From: a bacterium
GTDB lineage: Bacteria; SAR324; NAC60-12
Direction: 5' to 3'
Assembly: GCA_965205865.1 (NCBI GenBank)
Contig: CBDBHR010000028.1
Coordinates: 563,656-627,655 of the forward strand
DNA length: 64,000 nt
The position numbers were made by a program, and so were the translations under genes. A model generated the notes under the pieces. It was given only the letters and a program-made list of their open reading frames with translations. It did not search any database and was not told where the DNA came from. Every line of letters starts with the position of its first letter. Within the stretch, counting starts at the first letter, position 1. Positions 6,180-32,384 of this stretch are shown here, piece after piece.

Positions 6180-6676
6180 TATCGTCGGCACTAACTCGGT
6201 AAATAGGCTTCGTGGAATTTTTCCTTCACGATCCCTTTCGAAATCCATTCATAAATCTGCTCGCGCGAGTACCCGAGTTGCATCAGCTGCGCGCATCCAT
6301 GCTTGCGTAGCGCAATGAATGCTAAAGGGCGCACCGGCGTCGTTCATCAACTCGATCCAATGCGTGGCTGGTTTTTCAACGATTCATCACACCAATTCTG
6401 AAATTCTCAATCACAACATCGGCAAACTGAATCAACCGCCCGGCACTTTTCAAACCCTCCGATGTCTTCAAATCAAATTGGAGTGTTTTCTTACCCCTGC
6501 TTGAACACTGCGTTGACCGGTCCGTGATTGTCGGGCTTGTTCGGTCGATCGTTTTTTATCATCTCAGCTCCCTGGTCTGCCAACAACATGCCAGTCAATG
6601 GTCCGGCAATATAGCGCCCAAAATCTATAACTCGAATCCCAGCTAGGGGAGTTCGTGCATCCGATGACGTATCCAT
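6180..6676 (-). pseudogene. CoA-transferase family III (CaiB/BaiF) remnant, frameshifted and truncated
   Basis: [43 protein letters not shown] (N-terminal signature) continues in another frame as LQFDLKTSEGLKSAGRLIQFADVVIENFRIGVMNR; total coding capacity is far below the ~400 aa of this family. Confidence 0.5.
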
Positions 6677-6770
6677 TATGAAAGACCTTTCAAAGAATGT
6701 GGAAAATTGAAGGAGTTTGTCTTTCCAAGGAGTCGAAAAGGAAACGTTCGTGCTAGTTTGCTCATTTTGC

Positions 6771-8015
6771 TCAGTAGACTTCGACAGATCGTTGTCTGGC
6801 GGAATAGACAAGAGGCACAACGATTAAAATCATGAAAATAGTGACTATTCCGATGATAGGAACACCTACGAGTCGTTCATTTTTAATCGTGAGCAGAGGC
6901 GTAGCCCAGAGGCCTCCTACTCCCATGGAAAGATTGGCAACGATCATGCTCATCGACATCAACCGTCCTCTCTTGTATATGGGGACTGATTCGGTTAGCA
7001 TCAAATAGAGAATCAAATAGTTGAAACGCGGGCATTCTCATCGAACCGCCTAACATCATGCCTGCCATAAATAATCCTGCCAGAATCGCGGGAAAAGGAA
7101 TATTGGTAAAAAAGAATAAGACAATTCCCATGATCATCGATCCCATAATGACAACATTCGATTCGATTTTGAAAAAAACCTCAACATAAGTCCGGATAGT
7201 TGATTGCCAATCACGCCCCCAATTCCCCCTTGCATATAGCAAAGACCAACCTGGGTTGCACTCATTCCCATATTCATTGTAAGCCAAATCCCCATATTGG
7301 GGATCAAACCAAAAAGTCCTACTAACATAAAGAACTGAGCAAGAAAAAGTTTCCGCGGTACTTTCAAGTTCCACAATTGAAACAGTTCGAGATACTGGAT
7401 AATAATTTTATCCGGTTTGATCCCGGTCTCGGCAGGTCTCATCTTGGTTATACCAAAGATGCAAAAAATCGTAGCAAATGCGACGATATAAAAAGGAGCT
7501 TGCCAGGAGAAATAATCTCCAGTCCAGGCGCCAAAAGGAACGCCAAGAATAGAGGAGGTCGCAAAACCGAGCATGACGGTCGTCATGGCTTTGGTCCGTT
7601 GCTCTCCCTGAAAAAGGTCTCCCGTGAAGGCGAGGATATTGGGCATGATAGGGCCGCCAAAGAGAGCAGAGACAATTCGAAAAGTAAAAATCGTCAAAAC
7701 ATTGTATGAAAGCGCACAACCTAAGGTGGCAAGGCAGAATCCGCAGGAGAGAATGATCAACATCTTTTTTCGACCCCACCGATCTGAAAAAGGGGCTGTC
7801 ACCAATGCGGAAATCGCAGCCACCAAAGGATAGACGGCAATTAAATAACCACTTCTCTCCGGAGCCAGCCCAACGGCTTCAGAAATGCTGGCACCCAGTG
7901 GAACCATCATGAGATGGTCCATAAAAACAAAGAAAAATAATAAAAAAAGTGGAAGAACTTGAAAAAACACGTTGCCGTGTCTGTCAGGATAATCGGGTTG
8001 GGGGGAATTTGTCAT
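6771..8015 (-). pseudogene. MFS transporter pseudogene (two or more frameshifts)
   Basis: Three consecutive minus-strand ORFs (7134-8015, 6883-7374, 6771-7016) together read like one 12-TM MFS protein. Confidence 0.55.
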
Positions 8016-8148
8016 AAAATATCTAAATTAGTTTTTAAAATCTATCTATCCGACTTGCCAATGCATGAAAACAATCCACTTTCCTGCAAATCGTTTTTTC
8101 ACGTCATCACGTCGTATCTCCACAACTTTCCGGACCGCATCGATTTTT

Positions 8149-9405
8149 TCAGTCCAGCAAGCTCGCGAATTCACGACGCAGCAGATCCAGCGATTCCGCA
8201 GTCCCCATACGTTGGATGCGTATTGGGTCGCCAAAAGTAAGCAATTGGCGTTGACGTGTCTTGTGAGGAGTGGCGAGAGCTACAAATACGATACCGGTAT
8301 TTCGGTCGCCGGCACCTTTTTTAATCTTTCCAATGCCAGTCGTTGCCAAACCATAAGTCGCCCCACTGCGTCTGCGAATGGACTGGGCCAGAGCACAGGC
8401 CACTGGAGCGGAAACCGGCCCATGTTCAAATAAGAGATGTTCAGAAACCCCGAATTCATACAAAGAATCATGGGGGCCCAAGACAAGCGACTGGGCAAGC
8501 CAGTCAGACTGGGCATTGAAGGCGCTACAAGTGGCTGTCAAGTGGCCTCCGGTACTGATTTCCAGCAGGGCAATCCGTTCTTGGCGATTTAGCAACTGTC
8601 GCGCGACCACTTCCACGAGGCTTCCTCCAGGCTCTGCCAATCCTTCAGTGGCAAAAATAGAATTTCCAATGCGAGCTGCAACGTCCCGGACAACGGCCTG
8701 CAGTTCGTTATCCGGAAAATCGCCGGGAAAACGCAATTTGACTTGGTTTTCCGGATGCATGGTCCGAAAACTGAGCGTCACCCTAGGGTGGTTGAAGGAA
8801 CCTATCTGTTCCTGCAGGGTGGACTCGCCAATGCCCACGGTACGAAAGGTAATCAGACGGCTGGGCTCGAGTTGGAATCGCTTGTACAGTAAAGGTTCCA
8901 CGCGATGTGGGATCATTTGTTTCATCTCGCGCGGCACTCCCGGTAAAAAGGCCAACCAGGAATGTCCTTGCTCGATTGCAAAACCGGGTGCCGTTCCCCA
9001 GTGGTTGTCCAATCGGATGGCGCCTCGAGGCAAATATGCCTGCTTGCGGTTGACATCGGACATAGGACGATTCACCCGTTTGAAAAAACCGGCAATATGT
9101 TCCAAAGCAATAGTATCCAGTTGCAAGGGGCGATCAAAGGCTTCCGCGACTGCTTGTGCCGTCAAATCATCTTCCGTGGGACCCAAGCCTCCGGTGCAGA
9201 TACAAAGAGAGGATCGCGCTGCAGCGTCGCGGACCAGATCACGAATGTCTCCGAGCCGGTCTCCGACCGCAGTATGGCGCAGGACAGTGAATCCCAGTTC
9301 AGTCAAGCGTTCCGAAATCCAAGCGGCATTCGTATCCACCGTCTGTCCGGTGACCACCTCATCTCCCTGTGACAGTATTTCAGCGCTGTGTGCCGTCGTT
9401 GTCAT
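8149..9405 (-). CDS. cinA: CinA-family protein (MoCF-binding domain plus nicotinamide-nucleotide amidohydrolase PncC domain)
   Basis: EILSQGDEVVTGQTVDTNAAWISERL... in the N-terminus and a PncC-like C-terminus; overlaps the upstream VOC gene, suggesting an operon. Confidence 0.7.
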   Translation of the reverse strand: MTTTAHSAEILSQGDEVVTGQTVDTNAAWISERLTELGFTVLRHTAVGDRLGDIRDLVRDAAARSSLCICTGGLGPTEDDLTAQAVAEAFDRPLQLDTIALEHIAGFFKRVNRPMSDVNRKQAYLPRGAIRLDNHWGTAPGFAIEQGHSWLAFLPGVPREMKQMIPHRVEPLLYKRFQLEPSRLITFRTVGIGESTLQEQIGSFNHPRVTLSFRTMHPENQVKLRFPGDFPDNELQAVVRDVAARIGNSIFATEGLAEPGGSLVEVVARQLLNRQERIALLEISTGGHLTATCSAFNAQSDWLAQSLVLGPHDSLYEFGVSEHLLFEHGPVSAPVACALAQSIRRRSGATYGLATTGIGKIKKGAGDRNTGIVFVALATPHKTRQRQLLTFGDPIRIQRMGTAESLDLLRREFASLLD

Positions 9406-9425
9406 GGTTTCCAATGGCGTTGGCG

Positions 9426-9818
9426 TTAAGCCCAATAATTCAATTCGACCTTGATCCCGTTGGGATCATGCAGGAAAATCTGATACAATCCCGTTCCAGG
9501 TACTTCTCTTTCTTCGAATTCAATAGAATGACGTTTGATACGTTTACGCAGTTTGTTGGGCTCTGTGATATTGAAGGCAATGTGATCGACAGCCCCGGAG
9601 CCTTTCATTTCTTTAGTATCCTTACGTTTCTTCAAGGTTTTGCGGTCCACTCCAATCAAGTGTACGACGGGCACTTTTCCTATATAAAGCCAGTAACCGG
9701 GAAAATTAAAATCGGGGCGCTTCCCGTCTTTCATTCCCAATACATCCACAAAAAAATTACGAGTTTTCTTCAACTCAATAGTACGAATCGAACAATGGTG
9801 AAGTACAGTCAGAGGCAT
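9426..9818 (-). CDS. VOC-family (glyoxalase/bleomycin-resistance fold) protein
   Basis: 130 aa; HHCSIRTIELKKTRNFFVDVLGM...HIAFNI pattern. Confidence 0.5.
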   Translation of the reverse strand: MPLTVLHHCSIRTIELKKTRNFFVDVLGMKDGKRPDFNFPGYWLYIGKVPVVHLIGVDRKTLKKRKDTKEMKGSGAVDHIAFNITEPNKLRKRIKRHSIEFEEREVPGTGLYQIFLHDPNGIKVELNYWA

Positions 9819-9983
9819 AGGATTCCTGTTAGAGTAAGGTGAAAGAAATTTACTTTTTCAAGAAAGTGAAAGATTATAGAGAGCTAGAAGATAACACCAC
9901 TTCCGCATAAATTTCAACTCGAATTATGACAATAGCGCTGACGCATCGATATTAGCTCTTTTATACCTCTTTTCAGCAAGAAA

Positions 9984-11942
9984 ATGCCAAGAATCCGACT
10001 TTCTCGAGAAGAGAAAGAGCAAATGGCTGCTCCCCACCTCATGGCAATTGATAGTAAATTGTTCTGCCAGGGAAATCACCACCAGATTTATCGCAAACTG
10101 GGGGCCCACCCCGTCACATTGGAAGGAGTCTCCGGAACGATGTTTGCCGTTTGGGCTCCCAATGCCAAACAGGTGAGCATCGTTGGTTCCTTCAACCACT
10201 GGCACGGTCGCAATCATCCGATGCAAAAGCATGCGGAGGCTGGTATTTGGGAATTGTTTATTCCGGAGGCGCAGACAGGAGATTTGTACAAATATCAAAT
10301 CAAAGCGCCGGATGATCAAATTATCCTCAAATCCGATCCCTTTGGCTTTGCCATGGAGAAGCGACCTTCCACGGCTTCCATCGTGAGCAACTTGGAAGGA
10401 TTTGCCTGGCATGATCAGGCTTGGCTTAACAAGCGTGAATCCCAAGACATTTTAAAGCAACCGATCAATATATACGAAGTTCACCTCGGTTCCTGGAAGC
10501 GCGTCCCGGAAGAGGGGAATCGGTTTTTGACTTACACGGAAGCGGCAGCAGCACTCATCCCCTACGTCAAAGAAATGGGATACACGCACGTCGAATTGTT
10601 GCCTGTTGCCGAACATCCCTTGGACGAATCTTGGGGATATCAAGTGACGGGTTATTATGCCCCAACGTCACGATTCGGAAAACCTCGGGAATTCATGGCT
10701 TTTGTCGACCAATGCCACCAGCAAGGGATTGGCGTAATTCTGGATTGGGTACCCGGGCACTTCCCCAAAGACGAGCATGGACTGGCACGTTTCGATGGCA
10801 CTTTTCTTTATGAGCACATGGACGATCGCCGGGGTGAGCATAAGGAATGGGGAACCTTAACCTTCAACTATGGTCGCCATGAAGTACGAAATTTTCTCAT
10901 CGCCAATGCCGTTTTTTGGTGTGACATGTACCATATCGATGGTATTCGGGTCGACGCTGTGTCGTCAATGCTTTATCTGGATTACAATCGAGAAGCCGGA
11001 CAATGGCTTCCTAACCGTAATGGAGGTAATGAGCATCTCGAGGCAATTGATTTTTTGCGGCAACTCCATAAAGCCCTTTCTCAACGTTTTCCTGGTATAC
11101 TTTCTATTGCAGAAGAGGACACTGCCTGGCCTGGGGTGAGCCATCCGACATACGCAGGAGGTCTGGGGTTCAATCTCAAATGGAACATGGGATGGATGAA
11201 TGACACGTTGCGATATATGGCGTTGGATCCGATTTATCGTAGGTATGAGCACCACCTCTTCACTTTTTCATTGGTTTATGCGTTTTCCGAAAATTATGTT
11301 CTACCGATTTCACACGACGAAGTTGTACACGGAAAACGTTCCTTGTTGGACAAAATGCCTGGAGATTCTTGGCAAAAACGGGCTCATTTTCGGCTTTATT
11401 TGACTTACCAGATGGCCCACCCCGGGAAGAACCTGCTCTTCATGGGATCGGAATTCGGACAATGGCAGGAATGGAAAGTATCCGAAAGCCTGGATTGGCA
11501 CTTGCTGGAAGCTCCGGAGCATCAACATTTGCAGGAATATTGCAAAACCCTCAACTGGTTTTATCGCACACATCCCGCGCTTTTCAGCAATGACTTCCAC
11601 AGTACGGGATTCCAGTGGATCGATTTACATAACAACGAGCAGAGTATCTTCTCGTTTATGCGTAGAGATGGCGCAGACCCAGCAGAAGCACCTTTGATTT
11701 TTGTTTTCAATTTCACCCCAGTGCCCAGAGATCAATACCTGGTGGGTGCCCCACAAGAGGGACGATACTACAAAATTTTGGACAGCGACAGTGAGCAATT
11801 TGGCGGTTCCGGGTACAATCAACAAAAAAAAATATGGGCTGACTCCACACCGTGGCAGGGGCAATCTTGTCGGATTGCGCTGAAGTTGCCTCCGCTGGGA
11901 GCATTGGTACTACAGTGGTTTCAGAAAGGGCAACATCAATAA
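9984..11942 (+). CDS. glgB: 1,4-alpha-glucan branching enzyme GlgB (GH13)
   Basis: 652 aa; N-terminal CBM48-like region, GH13 catalytic motifs (GIGVILDWVPGHF, DGIRVDAV, EDTAWPG). Confidence 0.85.
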   Translation: MPRIRLSREEKEQMAAPHLMAIDSKLFCQGNHHQIYRKLGAHPVTLEGVSGTMFAVWAPNAKQVSIVGSFNHWHGRNHPMQKHAEAGIWELFIPEAQTGDLYKYQIKAPDDQIILKSDPFGFAMEKRPSTASIVSNLEGFAWHDQAWLNKRESQDILKQPINIYEVHLGSWKRVPEEGNRFLTYTEAAAALIPYVKEMGYTHVELLPVAEHPLDESWGYQVTGYYAPTSRFGKPREFMAFVDQCHQQGIGVILDWVPGHFPKDEHGLARFDGTFLYEHMDDRRGEHKEWGTLTFNYGRHEVRNFLIANAVFWCDMYHIDGIRVDAVSSMLYLDYNREAGQWLPNRNGGNEHLEAIDFLRQLHKALSQRFPGILSIAEEDTAWPGVSHPTYAGGLGFNLKWNMGWMNDTLRYMALDPIYRRYEHHLFTFSLVYAFSENYVLPISHDEVVHGKRSLLDKMPGDSWQKRAHFRLYLTYQMAHPGKNLLFMGSEFGQWQEWKVSESLDWHLLEAPEHQHLQEYCKTLNWFYRTHPALFSNDFHSTGFQWIDLHNNEQSIFSFMRRDGADPAEAPLIFVFNFTPVPRDQYLVGAPQEGRYYKILDSDSEQFGGSGYNQQKKIWADSTPWQGQSCRIALKLPPLGALVLQWFQKGQHQ

Positions 11943-11967
11943 GAATGGCGTCCTCAACGATTTCAGA

Positions 11968-12723
11968 ATGATTGTAAGAATGAGAATCAAATTATTTTTT
12001 TCGCTTGTTATACCAATAATATTCTTCATATTTTTGGCAACGCTGTTTGCTCAGACGCAATCCATTGAAATTCCGTATTATATCGGCAACGCCTTTGATC
12101 AACGATCCAAACAACTGCTTTATGTCGAGGAGTTCCAGGAAATTCCCGATGATCAACAAAATCGTTCTGCTCAGGTCATTTATCAAACCCCGGATGGGAA
12201 AATAATTGCGCAAAAAGACCTTCTATTTCACGAAAATCTTTTGATTCCCGAATACCGCTTGGAAGATTTTCGCGATGGTTATCTGGAAGGAGCCTCCATT
12301 TCCGATGATTCTGTCACAGTATACTGGCGTGAAAACCGCGAAGCGCGTTTGATTAAAAAATCTCTCGTGGTTCCCGAACCGGCTGTTGCAGACATGGGGA
12401 TTCACTATTACGTGCAAAAAAATTGGGAACTCTTAGATCAGGGAGAAACGCTATTCTTCAATGCGATCGTTCCGGCAAAACTGGATTATTTCTCGTTTCA
12501 AATAAAAAAAATCAAAGAGGAGAAAAGGGAGCACCAAGATGTCGTCGTATTTGAAATAGAATTGGAAAACGCGTTTTTACGTCTGTTTGTCACTCCCATT
12601 CTTCTCACTTATCATGCCCATACTCGGCAACTATTGATCTTAGAAGGACTTTCCAATATCAATGACAAATACGGCAAGAGCCTGAGGGTTATCATGATGA
12701 TCGATTACGTGAAGGACGAATGA
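11968..12723 (+). CDS. Hypothetical secreted/membrane-anchored protein
   Basis: 251 aa; hydrophobic N-terminal segment; no recognisable domain. Confidence 0.4.
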   Translation: MIVRMRIKLFFSLVIPIIFFIFLATLFAQTQSIEIPYYIGNAFDQRSKQLLYVEEFQEIPDDQQNRSAQVIYQTPDGKIIAQKDLLFHENLLIPEYRLEDFRDGYLEGASISDDSVTVYWRENREARLIKKSLVVPEPAVADMGIHYYVQKNWELLDQGETLFFNAIVPAKLDYFSFQIKKIKEEKREHQDVVVFEIELENAFLRLFVTPILLTYHAHTRQLLILEGLSNINDKYGKSLRVIMMIDYVKDE

Positions 12724-12739
12724 ATCGTTAGCAACTTCA

Positions 12740-14060
12740 ACTCAAAAAAACTTCTCGTTTTTGCAAAGCAAGTCTGAAATTTCTTTACAGGTCCTCAAAT
12801 CCACGTCTGTATTCCCATCAGAATGGTTACCCATTGGTATGCTTTTTTTGATACCCTGTTATCCACGTCGGTATGACTGTCCTTATTAAACTCACCTTTT
12901 CTTTCGATCCTCCTCTTCTTTTTTTAGTTTGTCCTTCCTACGCATTTCATAAAGAAAGAGACGATAGACTGTAAAAATGAAAAGAAAGAGCAAAACCGGG
13001 AAAATCATATCCCTTTCCTGCCGGACCCAAGTGAAAAGCTCCTCCATATATCTCCTTATTTGCGAGTTGGATGCGAATTTCTTTGGTGAACTCTTCGTAA
13101 ATTTTCCTGGAGTTTTTTATATAATGGAAATTTACCAGTTCGATTATTAATTCATAACTTTCAATCACTCAAAAAATATGACTATACCGGACAACAAAAA
13201 CAGTTTGACTTTCCTTAAGCAAATCATCTATGATCCGGGTTGAATTTAGAATGCCTGTTCAAGGGTTTAATTCTAAATTCTTTTTGTAACGCACTGATTG
13301 TGTTTTTTTTAATCCTTAAATATATAAGGAGTATCCATGTATCTAAAAAAATCAAGTAGTTTGCTCCTGGCTGGTTTGATGGGAACCGGCCTTGCTCTGG
13401 CTCATCCGGAGGGAGATATCAACAAAGATCCCGTCTTTGGAGGTGCCATCATCATGTCCGGCAAATCCAATAGCCAAATCAGTTATGATTGCCAAAATCT
13501 CAACAGGTGAGATCGAAGATGATTACTATCAACAACCCCAGAAAGTTGAAGGTGGCAAAGCAGAAGGAAAAGTGCGTGCCGAAAAATTGAGTGCCAAAGA
13601 ACATTCTGAAATTGCACGTAAAGCAGGAAAACTAAATTAAAATAAAGGGGAAAATATGAAAAAACTGGTAATAATATTCTTGATATTCGGAGTCTTTTCC
13701 ATGAATCTAAAAGCAATGGAACATAACCAATTCCACGGTAAGGTAATTGTATTATTCAAAGAACTGATGCAAATGGTAGAAGATGGCGTTTTTGTGAACA
13801 ATCTCAGTTTTGGGGTTGGACAACCAAAGACATGGCTAAATAGAGTAAAAGAACTCAATAAGCAGAGCACAAATCTTAGTTTTGCAGATAAAATGATAAG
13901 TCTCCCTTATGGTTTGGAAAGTCCATCCCTGATATTACCTTCTGAATTAGAAACATTTGTTAATCTGATTGTATCCAGAGATATAGAAAAATTTGATGAA
14001 TTGGCTGCGAAATTCTGGTTGTTTGTCATCTTGTCAGAAAATCCCGAATTAAAAAAAAGT
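12740..14060. other. AT-rich islet (~1.3 kb) with small signal-peptide ORFs; it replaces the 5' end of the adjacent peptide-binding-protein gene
   Basis: Sharp composition shift; small ORFs at 13337-13510 (signal peptide, 57 aa) and 13656-14066; a KLSAKEHSEIARKAGK motif sits in a shifted frame. Confidence 0.4.
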
Positions 14061-14066
14061 CTTTGA
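13656..14066 (+). CDS. Hypothetical small secreted protein (signal peptide)
   Basis: MKKLVIIFLIFGVFSMNLKA... N-terminus; AT-rich. Confidence 0.35.
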   Translation: MKKLVIIFLIFGVFSMNLKAMEHNQFHGKVIVLFKELMQMVEDGVFVNNLSFGVGQPKTWLNRVKELNKQSTNLSFADKMISLPYGLESPSLILPSELETFVNLIVSRDIEKFDELAAKFWLFVILSENPELKKSL

Positions 14067-15646
14067 TTTTTAACGGGCCGCGGGGTACCGGCGAGGAGAG
14101 CTACCCCAACTTCTGGTTCATCAATATCAGAAAACAGATGGGCCAGCTCTTCGAGTCCTGGGAAATCCATGGAATCAACGGCGTGACCTTTCGCATGCGC
14201 CAAGGGGTTCACTACTGGCGCGAGCAGGATGTCTTTCAGCCCAACCCGAATCTGAAAGAGGTGTACGGCACGGAGATGACCGCGCAGGATATCGTCGACC
14301 GTTGGAATTTGGAAGCCGCGAAGCCCGGCACGGCTGCCTCCGACCGAGACTGGAAATGGACGGTGCGGGCAGACGATCCCTGGTTGATTGATATCGAGTA
14401 TCCGGAACCCGATGCGGCCGAGTGGTTTTTCGTGACCCTGGACCGTGTCAGTTTTTCCCCCCCGGAACTGCATCAGACCGAGGGCGTCGATCCGGCCAAA
14501 TGGCAGGATGGCCTGGGCACAGGTCCCTGGATCCCCATCGATCACGTCAACGGAGTGAGTACCACCTTGAAGAAGAATCCGACCTACTGGGATACGGATC
14601 CCTTCAACGGGAGAAAGGTGCCCTATATGGACAAACTGACGCTGGTTCCCACCGCCGACAACAATGCTACGGCTATTGCCTGACTGCGTACCGGCCAGAT
14701 AGACATCTATGGTTTCTTTGGCCTCCAACCGGAAGACACCCAAGCCCTTGCCAAGTCCAATCCCGAACTCGGACACCGACCGCAAGGCGACTTGTTGCGC
14801 GGCTATAATCCGAATCTTGCCATCGAAGGGACTCCATGGGGGGACCGCCGGGTCCGTCATGCGGCAATGATGGCCGTCAATCGCCAGGAAATGATCGATA
14901 GTGTCTATTTAGGCCTCGGTTATGCGGAAGGTTACCCTGCCCAACGGGGACACGGCGATAAATGGATCAGCGCGGAAAAACTCAGGGCAATGGGACGCCC
15001 GGATCTAGCCAAGCTGTATGAGTACCACCCCGAGGAGTCGAAGCGGTTGCTCGCTGAAGCCGGCTACCCCGATGGTTTTGACACGACCATCATGGCACAT
15101 CCGCAAATCCAGGAAGATGCGGAACTCTTTGCCAGCTATCTCAACGCTGTCGGTATTCGTGCTACCCTTGACGTGATGGAAGCCACTGAAATGTATAATA
15201 CCTCGCAGGGTCCTGAACCCGGTCCCAGGTTCACCGGATTGACCTTCATCGATGCGGGCGCGCCGCAGATTGGCTTTGAGGGGACCATGAATTTCCACCA
15301 TGACCCGAATGCGACCCTGGTCTGGTTCGGCAACCCCATGGCACCAACGGCCAGTGCCGAAACCAGGGAAGAGGCGCAGAAAATTTCGGAAATGTGGGAA
15401 AGGCTCAAGGTCACTGAAAATCCGGATGAGTACGAGAAGCTATATACGGAGCTCTACCTTTACGTGATTGAATCCTCCTGGCATATCGTCTCGGTTACTG
15501 TTGAGCAACATATCTGGTGGCAGCCCTGGGTCAAAGGTTACGATGGGGCCAATGGAGACCTGATCTGGCAGTATAACCTCGCTAAGTACTTTTGGCTCGA
15601 CTGTGAGCTGAAAGAGAGCAGCAGTAACAGGGCCTGTGGTGAGTAA
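14063..15646 (+). pseudogene. Peptide/nickel ABC substrate-binding protein (family 5) paralog, 5'-truncated and with an in-frame TGA
   Basis: Aligns to residues ~250-675 of the intact SBP at 42623-44368; the intact copy reads LAALRSGRHDI where this copy reads AIA*LRTGQIDI (TGA at 14681-14683); the N-terminal ~250 codons are missing at the AT-rich islet junction. Confidence 0.6.
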
Positions 15647-15685
15647 AGCAATAATTTAGTTCTATGTTCTTTGAAATGCGTAGAA

Positions 15686-15737
15686 TCAGGGCGGGGTTGC
15701 GGCCCCGCCGCTTATCATCCTCGCGCAAGCGGGGCTC
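15686..15737. terminator. GC hairpin (cagggcggggttgcggccccgcc) fused to a family-B-like palindromic unit
   Basis: Inverted repeat gggcgggg/ccccgcc followed by atcatcctcgcgcaagcggggctcc. Confidence 0.4.
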
Positions 15738-15795
15738 CATATTTATAATATCTCCTCCACAATCCCCACCAAAGTAGTTGCCGGAAGAATAAGAA

Positions 15796-16758
15796 ATGCA
15801 AGCGTATATCATCAGAAGGCTGTTACTGACCATTCCAACCCTCTTGATTGTGACCCTCATCGTCTTCTTTGTGCTGCGCCTCATTCCCGGTGACGCGGTC
15901 GACATCATCGTCAGTCAGAATTTGGGGGGAACCCGGAGTGGTAAAGAGGATATCAAGACGGCATTGAGGCGGCAACTGGGACTGGATTTGCCCGTTCACC
16001 AGCAGTATCTGAAGTGGATGACAGGGTTAATGCGGGGGGACTTCGGCGCTTTCCTCTGGTCCAGGCAACCCGTTACCGATTTAATCGCGATCGGTTTGCC
16101 GGTATCGCTTGAAGTGGGTGGTTTTGCCCTGATTATTTCTCTGCTGATCGCCTTACCTGTGGCTATCTATTCGGGTATGCGGCCGGACAGCAAGACGGAT
16201 CTGGGTTTTCGCAGTCTCTCCATTTTCTTTATCTGCGTACCCGATTTCTGGGTGGGAACGGTGGTCTTGATTTTTCCTCCCCTCTTGTGGGGTTGGGGGA
16301 CCCGTTTGACGTGGGTTGATTTCGTTGATAAACCGGTGGAACACATCATCATGGTCATCGTTCCGGCCTTTATCTTGGGTATGCTTTTGTCAGGAATCAC
16401 CATGCGATTTGCCCGCAACATGATGCTGGAGGTGCTCAGTCAGGACTATATCAGGACCGCCTGGTCGAAGGGCCTGCGGGAGAGATGGGTCATCATCCGG
16501 CATGTGTTGAAGAATGCGTTCATTCCGGTGATTACCATGATCGGGCTCCTTCTCCCTGTCATGCTGGGGTCAGCAGTGGTGGTCGAGACTATTTTCAGCT
16601 TGCCGGGTCTGGGAAATATGTTGGTGCGATCCATCGAACACCGAGATTACCCGGTCATCTCCGGAGTCAACATGGTCGTGGCCACCTTTGTGCTGTTTTT
16701 AAATATCGTCATCGATATCAGCTACGCCTGGTTTGATCCCCGCATCAGGTACACCTGA
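15796..16758 (+). CDS. ABC peptide transporter permease (DppB/OppB-like)
   Basis: 320 aa; paralog of 44482-45438; multi-TM; EAA-like region. Confidence 0.8.
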   Translation: MQAYIIRRLLLTIPTLLIVTLIVFFVLRLIPGDAVDIIVSQNLGGTRSGKEDIKTALRRQLGLDLPVHQQYLKWMTGLMRGDFGAFLWSRQPVTDLIAIGLPVSLEVGGFALIISLLIALPVAIYSGMRPDSKTDLGFRSLSIFFICVPDFWVGTVVLIFPPLLWGWGTRLTWVDFVDKPVEHIIMVIVPAFILGMLLSGITMRFARNMMLEVLSQDYIRTAWSKGLRERWVIIRHVLKNAFIPVITMIGLLLPVMLGSAVVVETIFSLPGLGNMLVRSIEHRDYPVISGVNMVVATFVLFLNIVIDISYAWFDPRIRYT

Positions 16759-16778
16759 AACCGGAGCAAAGGAGAGCG

Positions 16779-17744
16779 ATGGCTGTTGCAGTGAAGACGC
16801 TGGCACCTGAAACGCAATCTGCTAAGAAAATGGCATGGTTTATTTTCTTCCGCAGGTTGTTCAGAGAGAAGCCGCTAGGGGCTTTTGGCCTGGTCATTGT
16901 CCTGCTCTTCTTCTTCATCGGCATCTTCGCTGATTTTCTCACACCGCATGATTACCTGCAGCATAAACTGCCCAAACGGTTGAAGGGGCCTTCTGCCGAA
17001 TATTTCTTGGGGAACGACCACTTCGGGCGCGATGTGCTCAGCCGTCTGATTGTGGGGGCGCGTATTTCCATGGTCGTCGGGGTGGGAGCAAGTTTCCTCA
17101 CGGTGCTGGTGGCGACGGTTTTCGGGCTCATCTCCGGGTATTGGGGGGGTAAGTTTGACCTCATCCTGCAGCGCTTTGTCGATGCGGTGATGTGCTTCCC
17201 GTGGTTGTTCATCGTCCTGACCGTCATGGGCATCGTCGGGCCGGGGATTGCGCAGGTCACCATCGTTTTGGGAGTTCCCTGGGGCATCAACAACATCCGC
17301 ACAATCCGCAGCGTGGTCTTGAGCGTCAAGCAGAACGCCTATGTCGAAGCGGCCATCGCCACCGGATGCAGCACCCCGAGAATCCTGATCCAACACATCC
17401 TGCCCCAGATCGTGGCCCCTGTGATCATTCTCTTTACCATTACCATGGGAGGCGCCATCCTCGGAGAAGGCGTTGTCAGCTTTTTGGGATTTGGTATCCC
17501 TCCCCCCGAACCCAGTTGGGGCGGCATGCTCAGCTTGGAAGGTCAAAAGTATTTGGAACGGGCCCCGATGCTCGCGCTATGGCCGGGACTCTGCCTGGCC
17601 ATCGTCGTCTTTGGGATCAATATGTTTGGCGATGCCATGCGGGACCTGCTCGATCCCAAGCTGAAACTCGGCATGGGCCGCTTTCACTCTATCAAGAAGA
17701 AAAATCCGGATAGCTCCATTCGTGGGCCACGACCGCGCAGGTAG
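16779..17744 (+). CDS. ABC peptide transporter permease (DppC/OppC-like)
   Basis: 321 aa; paralog of 45642-46613. Confidence 0.8.
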   Translation: MAVAVKTLAPETQSAKKMAWFIFFRRLFREKPLGAFGLVIVLLFFFIGIFADFLTPHDYLQHKLPKRLKGPSAEYFLGNDHFGRDVLSRLIVGARISMVVGVGASFLTVLVATVFGLISGYWGGKFDLILQRFVDAVMCFPWLFIVLTVMGIVGPGIAQVTIVLGVPWGINNIRTIRSVVLSVKQNAYVEAAIATGCSTPRILIQHILPQIVAPVIILFTITMGGAILGEGVVSFLGFGIPPPEPSWGGMLSLEGQKYLERAPMLALWPGLCLAIVVFGINMFGDAMRDLLDPKLKLGMGRFHSIKKKNPDSSIRGPRPRR

Positions 17745-18022: not shown

Positions 18023-18346
18023 TTAAGCACCGGGTTTATCGCTTTGTTGGGCTTGCCGTTGTCTCAGCCATTTCTGTAGTGAAGATTGATTTTCATTTGA
18101 TGCTCTCCCTGCCAACAATCCTGCAATACTAATATCTTCATCGATATCTTCCCAATGAATACCTTCCCCTTTTCCAATCATCCTCCAATGTTGACGTTCT
18201 TCCTCAGTAGAGTGAAAAAGACGGGGGAACCAGGCTAAGGGGACACTGATACTTCTCCCATCACTTAAATCAACATTGAGTTCATCCGATGTTACCTTCA
18301 CCTCTTCAGCATAAGGGATTTCCATTTTAATGATCAAAGTACTCAT
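18023..18346 (-). CDS. DUF2442 domain protein (putative TA partner)
   Basis: ...VDLSDGRSISVPLAWFPRL...GIHWEDIDEDISIAGLL matches DUF2442. Confidence 0.6.
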   Translation of the reverse strand: MSTLIIKMEIPYAEEVKVTSDELNVDLSDGRSISVPLAWFPRLFHSTEEERQHWRMIGKGEGIHWEDIDEDISIAGLLAGRASNENQSSLQKWLRQRQAQQSDKPGA

Positions 18347-18563
18347 GCCATCTCTCCAATATTTCTATTTGATGCTCTCTAACGATTTTCTGGATACGGA
18401 ATATTTCTCTCCGATTAAAACCGCCACTGTTTTGTAATCTTACTGGTTCAAGCCAAAATTTAGCAGTTTTATCATCTCGTTCAACATGTATATGAAGAGG
18501 TTCGACCTCGTCTCCGGAATAAAAGAAAAATCGATAAGGACCAATTCTTAAAACTGTAGGCAT
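18327..18563 (-). CDS. DUF4160 domain protein (putative TA partner)
   Basis: MPTVLRIGPYRFFFYSGDEVEPLHIHVERDDKTAKFWLEPV is the DUF4160 signature; overlaps the DUF2442 gene. Confidence 0.65.
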   Translation of the reverse strand: MPTVLRIGPYRFFFYSGDEVEPLHIHVERDDKTAKFWLEPVRLQNSGGFNRREIFRIQKIVREHQIEILERWHEYFDH

Positions 18564-18962
18564 ATGATTTTTTTCGGATATTTTGTTGCTTTTCGCAGGC
18601 CCAACGTTAAGGTCACTTTTGCCCACCCGATAGTGACCAGTGTCCTAAAGATGAACTGACAGTCTAGAACAAAATTTGGTGAAAAGCGCAAGGGGGGCGT
18701 CCAGTGAACCGCCTAGTTGGCACTTTTTTCTTGAGTGGTTATCAGTCGAATCCCAATAAACGATAACACATTGACCGCAAAGCAAACAATATAAAATGAT
18801 TGGCAATGGGGAGAGAAAGGGAGAGGAGCAATTGGAAGAAAAAATACCTCAATGGAAAAACACGCTGGAGACGTTGGATTCAGGGGAATCTGAGAAAAGA
18901 CATTTGATCGAGTTGCTCGCAATGACTAATCCTGCTTCTCAAATTAAACGGGACCACTGCCC

Positions 18963-18998: not shown

Positions 18999-19112
18999 AT
19001 CCAAAGTGCATTTTTAGCTTGATTTCATGATAATTCATACTTTGTGCCATAGGATTGCTGGAGAAAGAGATATACTGTGAACGGATGTTTTCTTCATTTT
19101 TTGTCATCCTGA

Positions 19113-19180: not shown

Positions 19181-19340
19181 AGGTCTTTGAAAAGTGAAAT
19201 TTAAACCCGTTCAGAGTATAATGTGAAGAATCTCGATGATCTCTCCCAGCAGTCGAGAAAACACATAAAGGTATACAACCTGCTGAAGCAATTACATCGT
19301 GATGAGCGAGAAATCATCACGCCACGCATGTACAAGGCGT

Positions 19341-20283: not shown

Positions 20284-20539
20284 ATGGTATAAATCTCCTT
20301 CCCATTGCTCCAGTAAGAGTTGGTACAAACAAATATGTGCCGCACGTAATCTGTTTTTCAACCTTGTTGATCACCTCGACTGCATATGATTAAAAATAAT
20401 TCACCAAACTATAGCATCCCTAAATCAGGCGTGTCAAGTATTAAAATTAGATCGTTAAAAAAGCAAAAAATCCGCTTTCTAAAAATTCTGATGTCTCAAA
20501 ATTCAATTCCCTTCTTGACACTTTAAAGGGGACTGGTAC

Positions 20540-20874
20540 TCTGGCGTCGTAAGAGGACAAAGCCCCACCCTTGAGATCTCTCGTCAAGGTTCATCCAGCA
20601 ACCGGACGTCGCTCACTTTTTATTGGTCGACATGCCTGCGAAATCCCGGGGGCTCGACCAGGAATCAGCAGATAAACTGTTTAGTGACTTAACTGCGTTT
20701 GCTTGCCAGCCTCCACGAACGTACTCGCATCAATGGCAGCCGGGAGACCTGATTGTTTGGGACAATCGATGTGCGCTCCACAGAGCGCGCCCCTACGACC
20801 GTAGAGAACGGAGAATATTGCTGCGCACACGCGTTGCGGGAGATCCTGTCACCGAATTTGCTGCCACAGCCTGA
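20540..20874 (+). pseudogene. TauD/TfdA-family dioxygenase, C-terminal fragment with a frameshift
   Basis: LVKVHPATGRRSLF... then, in a shifted frame, ...YSHQWQPGDLIVWDNRCALHRA (the W-x-x-GD-x-x-WDN-R-x-x-H motif). Confidence 0.45.
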
Positions 20875-20897
20875 ATATTCCGGTTTAAAAACCATCT

Positions 20898-22038
20898 TTA
20901 CACAAGAGCTTCATCAAAAACGAGGACACCACGTTTGAAACCGCCCTTGAGTAACTCATCATAGGCTTCGTTGATCTGTTCCAACCGAAAACGTCTGGAA
21001 ATGAGTTCGTCGAGCATGAGCTGACCGGAACGGTAGAGATCAAGAAGTACCGGGAATTGGCGGCGGGGATCAATGGAGCCATACAATGATCCAAAGATTT
21101 TCTTTTCCATTCTGTGCAGGTCCAGACCGGCATAACGCGTGTAGGACCCTTTCGGAGAAACACCAACGATTACCACGGAACCGCCGCGACGAGCAGCCTC
21201 AAAAGCAGCTTCCTGGGTGGCGGACAATCCAATCGCCTCAAAAGCAAAGTCAACGCCTCGGCCTCCGGTTAATTCTTGAATCTGATCCAGGGCGTCATCT
21301 CCGGCAGCAACGGCATGGGTAGCTCCGAATTGACGAGCGATTTCAAATTTCGCTGGATCGTTGTCGACGGCAATAATCGGATATGCGTTACAGAGTCGCG
21401 CACCTTGCAGGATATTTAGACCAACCCCTCCACAACCATATACTGCCACGCTTTCCCCGGGGCGAATGTTAACAGTGTTGAGAGCAGCACCCACTCCGGT
21501 AGTTACTGCGCAACCGACAAGGGCAGCGACTTCCATGGACTGCGCAACCGACAAGGGCAGCGACTTCCATGGAAATGTCTTCGTCGAACGGAACAAGGGC
21601 TTCCTGTGGAGCAATGGCTTTTTCGGCAAAAGTGGATTGGGTGCTGAATTGACGCACGATCTCACCGTTGAGACGCAAGCGTGTGGAACCATCAGGCATG
21701 GTACCGTTGCGCCACGGCCAAAATGTCTCGCAGAGAGTAGGATTGGTGTGCCTGCAATAGAAGCAGGTGCTACATGACGGCGCCCAATTGATAATTACAC
21801 GCTGCCCAGGTTGAACACTGGTGACTCCTGCACCGACTTCCTCGACAATGCCGGCACCTTCATGACCCAAAATAACTGGTAAAGGACGCGACAAATCACC
21901 GGAAACAAAGTGCCAGTCACTGTGGCAAGTACCCGCAGCACCCATGCGCACTCGTACCTCGCCGGGTTCAGGGGGTAACAATTCGACCTCTTCAATTTGG
22001 AAAGGACCTCCAACTTGATGTAAAACTGCAGCTTTCAT
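20898..22038 (-). pseudogene. Zn-dependent alcohol dehydrogenase (MDR family) disrupted by a 34-bp tandem duplication
   Basis: The unit tgcgcaaccgacaagggcagcgacttccatgga occurs at 21507-21539 and again at 21541-21573; MEVAALVGCAV is encoded twice and the frame is broken; N-terminal ORF 21469-22038, C-terminal ORF 20898-21692. Confidence 0.6.
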
Positions 22039-22933: not shown

Positions 22934-23800
22934 CTAAACAACAATATCGAAAGGCAAATCGCTTATGTCGCGAAGTCTACTACCTTCGACCATGACTGCC
23001 AGCATCTCTGATTGATCTTTCGCCTTGGGAATGGCTTCACAGACTTGGCGCAACTCATCCAAAGCGAAGTGATATACGCAGTCAATGTCCCCTGTGCCAA
23101 GCGCCAGCGATGCAATTCGCATTGGGAGAGGTTCAGCCGTTACCGCCACGATATGCGGCAAGTTGCCTTTACGATTGCGGATAAGATTGAGCGCCTCTGT
23201 CCGTGAATTTTGAGAACGGTCGCTTCGAATTGTCCACTTGCACGATATACTTGCATGCAATAATGAAAGCGGTTCAGATTGATTCGCAGACAGGAATGGA
23301 GTAAGTGTTGCACTACCGGAGTTGTCCAGGAATACCTGTGTATCGTTGACTTCATCATGAGAGACCGGATAACGAGCGATAACTATATCAGGCGTGACGA
23401 TATACCCATGCCCGAGTGCGATGGATAGGGTTTGATTATCGCTCACTAGCTTAGCGAGGTTTTCCAGATGCTGATACTGCGCGAAGTTGGAAATCCGTGT
23501 CCGTGTCGTCAGGTATTGCCATCTACCGGGACGCAAGTGCTTGATAGCCGAAAATGCTTCTTCAATAAACTCGGTTGTGAACTTTTCAAACAGTGTTCCT
23601 GCGGTCTGTCCGGTAATTTTCGATGTAATCTGCCGGGGAAAACCAAGTACCTCCGCTATTCCGTTTGCAATGAGAACGCTGGATTGACTGCTGCCATCGG
23701 CAAAGTTTGGATAAAGCAAGCTATTCCTCTCGGAGAATCGGACTATTTGCGAGCCAATTTTGGAGTGATAACTTTGCCGTAATTCTGAAAGTGTACTCAT
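22934..23800 (-). CDS. Type II restriction endonuclease, Cfr10I/NgoMIV-like PD-(D/E)xK family
   Basis: 288 aa; D138 (TPD), S186-C-K188 and E202 reproduce the Cfr10I D134/S188/K190/E204 and NgoMIV D140/S185/K187/E201 spacing; lies 18 bp downstream of the methyltransferase. Confidence 0.5.
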   Translation of the reverse strand: MSTLSELRQSYHSKIGSQIVRFSERNSLLYPNFADGSSQSSVLIANGIAEVLGFPRQITSKITGQTAGTLFEKFTTEFIEEAFSAIKHLRPGRWQYLTTRTRISNFAQYQHLENLAKLVSDNQTLSIALGHGYIVTPDIVIARYPVSHDEVNDTQVFLDNSGSATLTPFLSANQSEPLSLLHASISCKWTIRSDRSQNSRTEALNLIRNRKGNLPHIVAVTAEPLPMRIASLALGTGDIDCVYHFALDELRQVCEAIPKAKDQSEMLAVMVEGSRLRDISDLPFDIVV

Positions 23801-23817
23801 GGCGCAATTTATCGGAA

Positions 23818-24690
23818 CTAAACAGCTAAGGTTTGCTGCACGCCGTTATTTATCCGAGTTTCGGATTGTGCCGCATATTCTTCGTTCAACTCAATAAGGA
23901 CGACGTGACGATTTGACTCGATCGCTGCTATGCCAGTAGTTCCCGACCCTGAAAACGGGTCAAGAATCACATCCCCGGGACGGCTACCTAAGATTATGCA
24001 GCGCCGTGCCAATTCTCTTGGGAAAACGGCGGGATGCAGCTTGTCACCAGCATCTGTCCCCAACAGCCAGTAATTCCGGAGATTTGCCCCGGTTTCTTCT
24101 CGCACAGCCTGATTGTTGTAGTAGTATTTTGCACTTTTTGAGAACAGAAAGATTTCCTCTGTGGCGTTTGACGGTCGGTTCTTGACGCTTTCGGGCATAG
24201 GAGCTTTCTTCAGCCAAGTTATCTTTGAGCGCAGCAACCATCCGTCGTCTTGTAATGCAAATGCTACTCGCCAAGGCAGTCCCATCAGGTCACGATCCTT
24301 CAGTCCCCAACAGTCCGGGACTTTGCAGTTACGCCTTTGGATGAGCCTCTTGGTATTGCCCACCTGTGCGTTTGGGCCGTGAGACCCGGTTCCACCGTTG
24401 CGGGCATATCCGTCGCCAACATTCAGCCAGAAAGTGCCATCATCGGAAAGTACTCGACGAACTTCACGAAAGATTTCTACAAGGTTCTGCACATAGTCTT
24501 TGGGAGATTCCTCAGCGCCTATCTGGGCTGAATGCTGATAGTCTCGCAACCCCCAGTACGGTGGTGAGGTAACACAGCACTGAACGGATTGCGATTCAAT
24601 TTGGGGCAATATGCAGCGATTATCACCTACCAGTAAATCAACACCAAAGTGCTGAGGAATCCTTATGGCTGCTTCGCTCTTTTTTGCCAT
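23818..24690 (-). CDS. Beta-class N4/N6 DNA methyltransferase (SPPY motif, probably m4C)
   Basis: CCVTSPPYWGLRDY (motif IV) precedes ILDPFSGSGTTGIAA (motif I), the beta-class order. Confidence 0.8.
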   Translation of the reverse strand: MAKKSEAAIRIPQHFGVDLLVGDNRCILPQIESQSVQCCVTSPPYWGLRDYQHSAQIGAEESPKDYVQNLVEIFREVRRVLSDDGTFWLNVGDGYARNGGTGSHGPNAQVGNTKRLIQRRNCKVPDCWGLKDRDLMGLPWRVAFALQDDGWLLRSKITWLKKAPMPESVKNRPSNATEEIFLFSKSAKYYYNNQAVREETGANLRNYWLLGTDAGDKLHPAVFPRELARRCIILGSRPGDVILDPFSGSGTTGIAAIESNRHVVLIELNEEYAAQSETRINNGVQQTLAV

Positions 24691-24999
24691 GGCAGAGTTT
24701 ACTCCAAGCTAATCACCAAACAGGGTGAACATCACAAAGAAAGGCGGCTGTGTCCAGTATCTTTTCTGTTTTCAGAAGGGCGTTATCTGACCACTCCGCA
24801 CTTCACCTTGCAGTTTGGCATGCGCACAAGATTATTGACAATCCCGGCTACTATATCTATTGGCTTACTTGGTGTCTATTTTGAAGCGGTATATGAACTC
24901 ATCTCCGCCGCGTTCGAGGGACAGACATGCATAGGACAATGAGTCGCAAAACGATACCGCCGGAGAATACCAGCTTCATGGTGTCCTCCATATCAAAAG

Positions 25000-25051
25000 G
25001 AAAATCAAGAAGTTCCCATGACGATAACATTTGAAAATGGGTGTGTAAAGT
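25000..25051. repeat. Conserved ~50-bp intergenic motif, copy 1 (gaaaatcaa..cccatgacgataacatttgaaaatgggtgtgtaaagt)
   Basis: Also at 33879-33929 and, diverged, at 37017-37066; contains the imperfect palindrome catttgaaaatg. Confidence 0.45.
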
Positions 25052-25184
25052 TACTCTGTAAAGCAGACAGTCTCCGAGGGTTGTTATAAAAATGAAGTTT
25101 CACAAAAAAACAATCCTTATTATAGGAGACTGTCATGGAAAAAACGAAAATTATTGAGAGTCAGATTTTTATATTAAATGATAT

Positions 25185-25272
25185 GTCATACCGGACTTGA
25201 TCCGGTATCCAGGGTTCGTGCTAATTTCCCGCTTGCGCGTAAGGCTGGATTCCTGAGCAAGCCAGGAATGAC
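25185..25272. repeat. Family-B palindromic element
   Basis: gtcataccggacttgatccggtatcc ... ggattcctgagcaagccaggaatgac. Confidence 0.45.
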
Positions 25273-25605
25273 ACGTTTATTCAATTCTTGATTTGCATAA
25301 TTTTTATAAATTTATCTGATCTGTCAATAATCAAGGCATGCTGGAAGCAGTGTAAAAATAGGTTAAGAAAGTCTTTTTCCGTGGGGTGGGGTTGGATTCA
25401 GGGTGATGCCAACAACCGATGGCTATTTGCCGCCATGGGATTGGATGTTCATGCGCATCAGTCATAAGCATGGAGACAAAATCTTACTTTCAGGAAAACA
25501 AATTTTTTGCGCTCACTCTATTTTTTCTTGCAATGCGAATAGAATTGTATTAGGAACAATTTTTAAGAACAAATTTTACAGGAAGATAGAGGAGAAATCA
25601 GCAAT

Positions 25606-26510
25606 ATGAACAATGCTACAGAATTTCCATCCGCTTTCAGTGAACCCAAGAGACGTAACATCCTGGTGGATTTCCTGATCAGGCTGGCTACAGAGAAACC
25701 CCTGGGGACCTTTGGTGGGATAATCGTTTTGATCTTTATTTTGGTAGCGATCTTTGCCGACATACTGGCACCTTATCCCCATGTCGAGGTCAACATATTG
25801 GACAGGATGCAAGAGCCCTCCGACCGGTATCTCCTGGGGACTGACCAGTTGGGGCGAGACCTCCTCGGCCGTTTGATTTTCGGGGCGCAAATTTCCTTGA
25901 CCGTCGGTCTGGCGGCGACAGCGCTCAATGTGCTCATTGCTGTCTTGATCGGCAGCATTTCCGGATTCTTTGGAGGAAAAGTGGACCTGGCGGTGCAGCG
26001 CTTCGTCGATGCCTGGATGGCCTTTCCGGGACTGCTTCTCTTGTTAACGATCATGTCCCTCGTGGGGCGGGGTCTCCCCCAGATCATCGTGGTCCTGGGG
26101 GTCACTGGAGTAATCGGAAGCTCGAGAATCGTCCGCAGCGCCGTGATCGGTGTCAAAGAGAATGTCTATTTTCAGGCGGCAGTGGCGATTGGCTGCTCTC
26201 AAGCAAGAATCCTGATCCGCCATGCGCTGCCCAATATTGCCGCCCCGTCATCATCATTTTCACCATTAACATCGGGGCCGTGATAATCAGCGAGGCTGCG
26301 TTGAGCTTCCTTGGATTCGGGTTGCCCGTCAAGGTACCCAGCTGGGGAGGAATGCTCAGCCGGGAAGGGCGTGAGTTCATGGAGATGGCCCCCCGACTGG
26401 CGCTCTGGCCGGGGCTTTGCCTGACGATTGTCGTTTACAGTCTCAACATGTTCGGTGACGCTCTCAGGGACCTGCTTGACCCAAGACTACGGGGTGGGGA
26501 AGGTAGCTAG
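25606..26510 (+). pseudogene. Orphan DppC/OppC-like permease paralog with a 1-bp frameshift
   Basis: ~80 % identical to 45642-46613; frame breaks near 26245 (gccccgtcatcatcatt versus gcgccgatcatcatcatc in the intact copy); no adjacent SBP or DppB. Confidence 0.65.
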
Positions 26511-32380: not shown

Positions 32381-32384
32381 TTTC

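Follow-up and report, generated by a model that had tools for sequence, protein, structure and literature searches.

The 64-kb window analyzed here (64,000 bp of contig CBDBHR010000028.1, treated throughout as one stretch) raises the question of why so many of its genes are broken, and whether the breaks are real mutations that record ongoing decay. It contains ~13 gene remnants versus ~44 intact genes, with remnants forming ~23% of the gene-like features. Intact coding sequence covers 63% of the window and recognizable remnants a further 14%; at a 21.5-kb locus of a SAR324 relative (L099), summed gene calls give ~84% coding. Pseudogenes in free-living bacteria typically amount to a few per cent. 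The first 34 kb hold 10 of the 14 remnant pieces (from 13 genes) and have an intact coding density of 57%, versus 70% in the right half, and at 6–31 kb about one quarter of the sequence is recognizable gene debris. Because closely related strains carry different breaks, we conclude that the decay is recent, ongoing, and strain-variable. The explanation we consider probable is that a SAR324-like sponge bacterium carries accessory transport and catabolic genes, many with nearby paralogs, that are now being inactivated under weak selection.

Lesions were checked by Pfam scans of open reading frames (ORFs) together with a six-frame Pfam scan wherever no gene had been called with confidence, and the window was compared with ten or more sister contigs that come from other assemblies and share 97–99.6% nucleotide identity with it. 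These cover window positions 2–16252 (L081 and L082), ~9.4–39.9 kb (L084–L088), and 47.3–64 kb (L089–L094 and L098). The comparison set mixes long-read and short-read assemblies, L083 and L084 being short-read scaffolds, and the coverage of the sister contigs is low (5–25x according to their names).

Gene remnants and their lesions

The following families were identified with Pfam E-values of 1e-11 to 1e-36 (CoA_transf_3, MFS_1, SBP_bac_5, TauD, ADH_N/ADH_zinc_N, BPD_transp_1, Trans_reg_C, and DUF5615). Disabling lesions relative to intact homologs appear as partial hidden Markov model (HMM) coverage or as split frames, and intact alleles are available for the solute-binding protein (SBP), the alcohol dehydrogenase (ADH), the MFS transporter, and a GNAT acetyltransferase, with paralogs serving for DppC. 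The principal remnants are as follows.

6194–6676, minus strand: remnant of a CoA-transferase family III gene (CoA_transf_3 HMM positions 1–39 of 366, plus two further pieces in other frames)
6771–7910, minus strand: MFS transporter pseudogene (MFS_1 HMM positions 1–272 of 347 only, after which the frame is lost)
13337–15646, plus strand: family-5 solute-binding protein (SBP_bac_5) pseudogene, compared with the intact 598-aa allele of L086
20575–20874, plus strand: C-terminal fragment of a TauD/TfdA dioxygenase (HMM positions 196–266 of 267)
20898–22038, minus strand: Zn-dependent ADH pseudogene, with ADH_N and ADH_zinc_N on separate ORFs
25606–26510, plus strand: orphan DppC-type permease pseudogene in two frames, with no partner genes nearby
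29745–29960, minus strand: remnant of an OmpR-type response regulator, DNA-binding domain only (Trans_reg_C positions 15–77 of 77 at 29772–29960)
53607–53897, plus strand: remnant of a DUF5615 (PIN-like toxin) gene (HMM positions 3–69 of 110 at 53664–53867)

An earlier reading made from the sequence only had proposed a high density of decaying genes in the window, and nearly every lesion it listed is present. It had placed a CoA-transferase stub at 6180–6676, a frameshifted MFS transporter at 6771–8015, a TauD fragment at 20540–20874, an ADH with a 34-bp duplication at 20898–22038, a frameshifted orphan DppC at 25606–26510, a response-regulator fragment at 29731–30031, and a DUF5615 remnant at 53623–53900; the partial profiles, split genes, and lost frames described here agree with each of these calls.

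Only ~480 bp remain of the ~1.2-kb CoA-transferase gene, comprising the N-terminal ~100 codons (frameshifted) and the C-terminal ~50 codons, and the same stub is present in L081 and in the short-read scaffold L083. Relative to the intact 372-aa allele of L081, the adjacent MFS gene has gained 5 bp through duplication of ATTCG (~7156–7160) and 16 bp at ~7005–7020. Both insertions are seen in the window only, and a stop at 7134 lies between them.

Alignment to the L086 allele as query places SBP codons 1–42 at 13337–13462 and codons 74–598 at 14069–15643, in the same frame. Between these segments, a low-GC insertion of 606 bp (13463–14068) takes the place of codons 43–73 (93 bp), and an in-frame TGA at 14681–14683 corresponds to GGA (Gly278) in the intact allele. 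The TGA had been recognized in the sequence-only reading, which also held that 250 N-terminal codons were missing; the alignment rules out the latter, with codons 1–42 lying upstream of the insertion. Recoding of the TGA was likewise rejected because the intact allele has GGA at the same site. The gene is intact in L086, carries the insertion and the TGA in the window, carries both plus an insertion sequence (IS) in L081, and has suffered a 2-kb deletion in L085. The 606-bp insert has a GC content of 38%, and the protein encoded by its 136-aa ORF has a hydrophobic N-terminus and matches no Pfam family; of the fetched loci, only L081 shares the insert with the window.

The TauD fragment, whose profile covers the C-terminal part only, also occurs in L085–L087. 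The lesion in the ADH gene is a perfect 34-bp tandem duplication at 21505–21572 that is found in the window only; L085 and L086 have a single copy of the 34-bp unit and an intact 368-aa gene, and in L087 a tandem duplication of 10 bp arose independently, ~45 bp from the site of duplication in the window. In the orphan DppC gene, a 1-bp deletion near 26247, evident relative to both paralogs, is common to the window, the short-read scaffold L084, L085, and L087, while L086 and L088 have larger deletions in this gene. The segment that holds the response-regulator remnant (29771–29982) has no alignment in L086 and L087. In addition to the DUF5615 remnant, an intact DUF433/DUF5615 pair is encoded at 32710–33299 (minus strand).

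The SBP pseudogene belongs to one of two Dpp/Opp-type operons (13337–17744 and 42341–46613), each consisting of an SBP and two permeases with no ATPase genes nearby. A related Spirochaetia operon and a SAR324 relative each have two ATPases, but tblastn with the Spirochaetia ATPases as queries detected no such gene in the window. We did not take the permeases as dead merely because ATPase genes are absent. In a scan of genome contigs with DppB, where identities reached 66% at most, the best relatives of the Dpp operon are Spirochaetia metagenome-assembled genomes (MAGs), with 66% identity. Synonymous divergence between strains (pS) is 0.08–0.18 in DppB1/DppC1 (15796–17744) versus 0.01–0.03 in adjacent genes, which may reflect recombination with a lineage further removed.

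Recurrence of the lesions and selection on the remnants

The CoA-transferase stub, the SBP insertion and TGA (in L081), the TauD fragment, and the DppC frameshift are all shared across independent assemblies, and the kind of damage to SBP, ADH, and DppC varies from strain to strain. The claim that lesions of such diversity are not purely sequencing error therefore stands, since most either recur in independent long-read or short-read assemblies or are multi-base events with intact sister alleles.

Ratios of nonsynonymous to synonymous change (pN/pS) were obtained from small Nei-Gojobori counts of the window versus sister strains, comparisons that are not independent of one another. The value over 24 intact genes is 0.15, versus 0.7–1.2 for the TauD fragment and ~0.8 for the orphan DppC (pooled counts). 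These older remnants evolve neutrally and have lost purifying selection. The recently hit SBP, ADH, and MFS genes still have values of 0.15–0.3, as expected for recent lesions. Small indels between the window and its sisters follow a gradient from intergenic sequence (2.6 per kb) through pseudogenes (0.66) to intact coding sequence (0.25, a ~10-fold depletion relative to intergenic sequence), which indicates selection acting on real mutations and not random error. The other genes of the window are mostly intact, with 96–100% protein identity across strains.

Four further features are listed separately.

9984–11942, plus strand: GlgB, an open ORF with an in-frame deletion (tblastn versus relatives of ~742 aa)
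41612–41857, plus strand: possible DUF4351 fragment, weak and tentative (HMM positions 14–55 of 59; 23.8 bits, just under the Pfam cut-off)
62450–63319, minus strand: EEP-family gene, an open ORF in which four homopolymer indels put two short stretches out of frame
63686–64000, plus strand: GNAT acetyltransferase with a doubtful +1 lesion (extra G at ~63970)

In GlgB, the first ~14 residues match the true N-terminus of the ~742-aa SAR324 relatives, after which the sequence jumps to residue ~110; the deletion removes residues ~16–105, the N-terminal domain, and the tblastn alignment spans only residues 110–740 of the relatives. L085 has an additional internal deletion of 1.4 kb. Because the ORF is intact, GlgB was not counted as a pseudogene. 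An ORF at 34205–34690 (plus strand) was rejected as a gene because an intact DUF488 gene on the opposite strand overlaps it.

The right-hand end of the window requires separate treatment. Eight window-specific indels of 1–2 bp, almost all in homopolymers, fall within 860 bp (63109–63970); the remaining compared sequence has only five window-specific small indels. The GNAT gene is intact (161 aa) in three sister strains (L089–L091), and its position within this cluster makes its lesion doubtful. The homopolymer frameshift named in the sequence-only reading is thus present as an extra G with intact sister alleles, while its status as a real lesion is questionable. Judging from the indel pattern, the whole cluster, including the GNAT +1 and the EEP indels, is probably a local consensus error in a poorly polished segment. 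The EEP indels form two mutually compensating pairs, so the ORF stays open, with the region of the N-terminal TYN motif scrambled.

Mobile elements and neighboring genes

The window contains IS elements, miniature inverted-repeat transposable elements (MITEs), and remnants of transposase genes; terminal inverted repeats are abbreviated TIRs below.

236–406, minus strand: degenerate fragment of an IS200-type (Y1_Tnp) transposase (six-frame Pfam scan, HMM positions 6–62 of 121, 35 bits)
3249–3486, no strand assigned: MITE A, ~237 bp, with 13-bp TIRs AACCTGAGTTCGA
5225–5386, no strand assigned: MITE B, a 162-bp insertion absent from L081
26510–28342, minus strand: IS5/IS4-like element with an intact 509-aa transposase, TIRs, and CTAG-type flanks
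30032–30511, minus strand: remnant of an IS630-type transposase, helix-turn-helix (HTH) domains only, no DDE domain
30644–32376, plus strand: IS1182-like element with an intact 525-aa transposase and the TIR CTGTTGCAGATTTT, inside a copy of MITE A
57637–59389, plus strand: IS with TIRs and a DDE_Tnp_1_4 transposase split into 276 and 206 aa (pseudogene)

Three IS carry TIRs and flanking repeats, and three IS copies and one MITE are polymorphic for insertion between strains. The IS5/IS4-like insertion is window-specific, its site being empty in L084–L088, as is the IS1182-like insertion, which is absent in L085–L087; the site of the DDE_Tnp_1_4 element is empty in L089 and L090. Sister strains in turn carry IS where the window has none, and in L082 a different IS is inserted at window position ~395–399. 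Transposase pseudogenes had also been predicted from the sequence, and they comprise the split DDE_Tnp_1_4 gene, the HTH-only IS630-type ORF, and the Y1_Tnp fragment. Intact counterparts include a 367-aa IS630-type transposase with DDE_3 in L091 and a 465-aa DDE_Tnp_1_4 transposase in L082, L091, and L100–L104.

The transposase clusters of the three IS families comprise 109 (IS5/IS4-like), 52, and 296 recorded sequence variants, of which many are truncated; these numbers pool several samples and are not per-genome copy numbers. Twenty-six contigs, the longest 1.38 Mb, encode a protein identical to the IS1182-like transposase. The large clusters, frequent truncation, and tandem and nested copies describe an IS expansion, in which a few families are represented by both identical and degraded copies. 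Further copies or fragments of MITE A lie at 30547–30643 and 32377–32467 (a split copy), 60132–60226, and 42585–42624, and MITE B has a second copy at 57248–57403 and is also present in L091, L092, L100, and L105. At its other sites the IS1182-like element has the same ~14–20 bp flanks, and it forms tandem pairs in L101 and L102 (L105 was also compared), which suggests that it prefers a repeat-type target.

A 565-bp inverted repeat (97.5% identical; 53868–54432 and 59531–60095) flanks the Ldh_2 gene, an aldo-keto reductase gene, and an IS. Each arm contains a gene for a ‘23S rRNA intervening sequence protein’ (four-helix bundle); L090 has both arms, and L089 and L091 have neither. Other neighbors include a DUF2442/DUF4160 pair of small genes (18023–18626, minus strand), of which DUF4160 is split in L086 and L087, and a 721-aa protein (618–2783, plus strand) in which a sigma-70 region-4 domain is combined, unusually, with two RNA polymerase alpha C-terminal domains; its gene is intact in L081, with 99% conservation. 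The genes for an NgoMIV-type restriction enzyme and methylase (22934–24690, minus strand) are 99–100% identical at the protein level across the sister strains that cover them fully, with nearly no synonymous differences, versus 1–18% in neighboring genes.

The organism and the cause of the decay

Apart from an essentially identical database entry on a 210-kb contig, the best matches to GlgB are proteins with 67–75% identity named ‘SAR324 cluster bacterium’. Two sequences from a deep-sea Geodia/sponge metatranscriptome (L095 and L096; IMG 3300042672) are 97–98% identical to window positions 60453–62317, and an identical 267-aa protein is encoded by these sequences and the window. Based on the GlgB relatives and the match in the sponge metatranscriptome, the organism appears to be a SAR324-like bacterium associated with deep-sea sponges. 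Five 21.6-kb contexts of the IS1182-like element and one further IS-bearing contig have a GC content of 0.48–0.51, the same IS set, and MITE B, which makes them most likely contigs of the window's own species. These loci contain fragments of PhoX (HMM positions 134–205 of 515), isocitrate lyase (198–311 of 526), a beta-lactamase (12–94 of 329), and an aldo-keto reductase (2–142 of 291), as well as the tail of a short-chain dehydrogenase/reductase gene, a permease tail, an SBP cut by an IS, and tandem and nested IS copies. In L102 the neighborhood is dense and normal apart from a tandem IS, and the flanking housekeeping genes in L082 are intact.

The lesions, their polymorphism, IS activity, and the neutral evolution of old remnants are shown by these comparisons, and sequence matches link the species to sponges. 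Decay affects uptake systems, small-molecule catabolism, one regulator, and one toxin, mostly in redundant paralogs. In the mechanism we propose, genes would be broken by the movement of MITEs and of at least three actively transposing IS families, by short tandem duplications (5, 10, and 34 bp) arising from replication slippage, by point nonsense and single-base frameshift mutations, and by deletions and illegitimate insertions of 0.1–2 kb. Because selection on the affected genes would be weak, loss-of-function alleles could persist beside intact ones in co-existing strains; older remnants would then drift neutrally and gradually be deleted, while neighboring genes remain under purifying selection. 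Relaxed selection tied to a sponge-associated lifestyle and to functional redundancy may be the cause, and the pattern of decay may extend across the genome.

Could the lesions instead be artefacts, produced by errors in the consensus, chimeras of mixed strains, or poor polishing of long-read contigs? The eight homopolymer indels at 63109–63970, including the GNAT frameshift and four in EEP, are of this kind; sister coverage is low, and one sister contig (ena:ERZ26167216:ctg484916; 92.6 kb; L089 and L092) carries the locus twice, inverted and with slightly different content, which may reflect either a fold-back assembly artefact or the joining of two strains. However, the CoA-transferase stub, SBP insertion and TGA, TauD fragment, and DppC frameshift recur in independent assemblies that include short-read scaffolds, the MFS and ADH lesions are events of 5–34 bp and not homopolymer slips, and the IS are bounded by proper TIRs and flanking repeats. 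Together with the depletion of indels in intact coding sequence and the neutral substitution patterns of old remnants, these observations make artefact an improbable general explanation, one that accounts for the right-hand end of the window at most. Still more improbable, to the point that we give it little weight, is that the interruptions are functional, with the TGA read through or tandem duplications acting as reversible off-switches of contingency genes. Perfect tandem duplications can in principle revert, two independent duplications occur within ~45 bp in ADH, and the MFS insertions of 5 and 16 bp sum to 21 bp, so that the frame is restored. The MFS stop nevertheless lies between the two insertions, the TGA replaces an ordinary GGA glycine codon in an SBP that also carries the 606-bp insertion, and the repeat units vary in both length and sequence and form no tract of the kind that characterizes phase variation; the remaining lesions are irreversible deletions. 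Programmed recoding is marked by an interrupting signal conserved among relatives and by a product that is needed, and here the intact SBP has GGA and the frameshifts are strain-specific.

A more serious competitor, which we regard as possible though rather less than an even prospect, holds that the first ~34 kb are a local junkyard, a flexible island of acquired accessory genes, IS, and MITEs, in a lineage whose core is ordinary and which is not eroding. The concentration there of 10 of the 14 remnant pieces, the coding density of 57% versus 70% in the right half, the GC content that ranges from 38% to 57% along the window (48% overall), and the large structural differences between strains in this segment are consistent with such an island, as are the Spirochaetia relatives of the Dpp operon at only 66% identity, the intact housekeeping genes of L082, the dense neighborhood of L102, and the large genome. 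On the other hand, PhoX, isocitrate lyase, beta-lactamase, aldo-keto reductase, and other fragments occur at several further loci, the IS families are very large, and remnants and IS are found in the right half of the window too. The island also overlaps with, and is compatible with, the inactivation of accessory genes under weak selection that we prefer.

Several observations weigh against that preferred explanation. The right half of the window is dense and largely intact, and ‘high turnover of accessory genes’ describes a hypervariable segment as well as ‘reductive erosion’ does. The additional loci are all IS-centered and form a biased sample, the pseudogene fraction having been read for the window and these loci. 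The MFS and ADH lesions, seen in the window only, are known from the assembled consensus only; the homopolymer-indel cluster at 63.1–64.0 kb means that the assembly is not uniformly reliable, and the doubled, inverted locus of ctg484916 suggests artefacts within assemblies. Furthermore, the genome is large and not reduced, since contigs with the identical IS1182-like transposase exceed 1 Mb (0.86–1.38 Mb) and the contigs involved in a single sample (ERZ25072854) sum to at least 2.4 Mb, and the GC content of 48% gives no sign of AT drift. Genome reduction and AT bias are expected only at later stages of erosion. The sequence-only reading had likened the window to a host-restricted or recently bottlenecked lineage undergoing genome erosion: the decay matches this in kind and host association fits the sponge match, whereas the unreduced genome and the absence of AT bias do not, and neither reductive erosion of the whole lineage nor a bottleneck is established by the window and the IS-centered loci.

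Degradation driven by IS is well known in recently host-restricted bacteria such as Sodalis-type insect symbionts, Shigella, and Mycobacterium leprae. IS expansion with pseudogene accumulation has also been described in other host-associated bacteria, including the luminous symbionts of ceratioid anglerfish (PMC6020299) and Serratia symbiotica (PMC3056288). The window resembles these degraded symbionts in its many IS, including degraded ones, in its pseudogenes formed by frameshift, nonsense mutation, truncation, and IS insertion, in its low coding density (63%), in the transport and catabolic genes that are mainly hit, and in the apparent host association of the organism. It differs in that the SAR324 genome is not reduced and has a normal GC content, the level of pseudogenes being read from the window and IS-centered loci, and in that the decay is polymorphism among co-existing strains and not fixed differences; the link to a host is here suggested by sequence matches to sponge data.

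Genomes of sponge symbionts are rich in transposases, restriction-modification systems, and toxin-antitoxin systems. Sponge-associated examples with IS and pseudogenes include Leptothoe (PMC8225149) and Microbulbifer spongiae (PMC12388028). The window shares with sponge symbionts its sponge origin, many transposases, an NgoMIV-type restriction-modification pair, several toxin-antitoxin pairs, and many genes for ABC-type uptake and dehydrogenases. Unlike reports on sponge symbionts, which are mostly counts of gene families in short-read bins, the comparison here resolves single lesions and their state in sister strains. Strain-specific indels, patchy GC content, IS and MITEs, and accessory functions also recall the flexible genomic islands of free-living bacteria, whose cargo is usually intact, whereas about one quarter of the sequence at 6–31 kb is gene debris. 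A literature search for SAR324 pseudogenes and sponges found no direct precedent for IS and pseudogene decay in a SAR324-type sponge bacterium. The pattern is familiar for host-associated bacteria and involves no new mechanism; the added value lies in the continued coexistence of intact and broken alleles.

Early genome decay is known mostly from insect endosymbionts and pathogens in which the lesions are already fixed, and most work on sponge symbionts draws on short-read bins, in which pseudogenes and IS stay hidden. With long-read contigs from several samples, the same gene is found intact in one strain and variously broken in others, and the order and rate of gene loss become measurable. 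The functions being lost are mainly nutrient uptake and small-molecule catabolism, and automated annotation of MAGs like these, without pseudogene calling, will over-count functional transporters and enzymes; local homopolymer errors, such as those at 63.1–64.0 kb, need to be separated from real lesions. It is possible, if somewhat short of an even chance, that this is a large-genome SAR324-type sponge bacterium at the very start of symbiosis-linked decay, in which intact and independently broken SBP, ADH, DppC, GlgB, and MFS alleles coexist in one population while several IS families actively transpose. If this hypothesis is correct, the bacterium would provide a natural system for measuring the rates of pseudogene birth and death and for seeing which functions are shed first, in an extracellular, probably horizontally transmitted animal symbiont.

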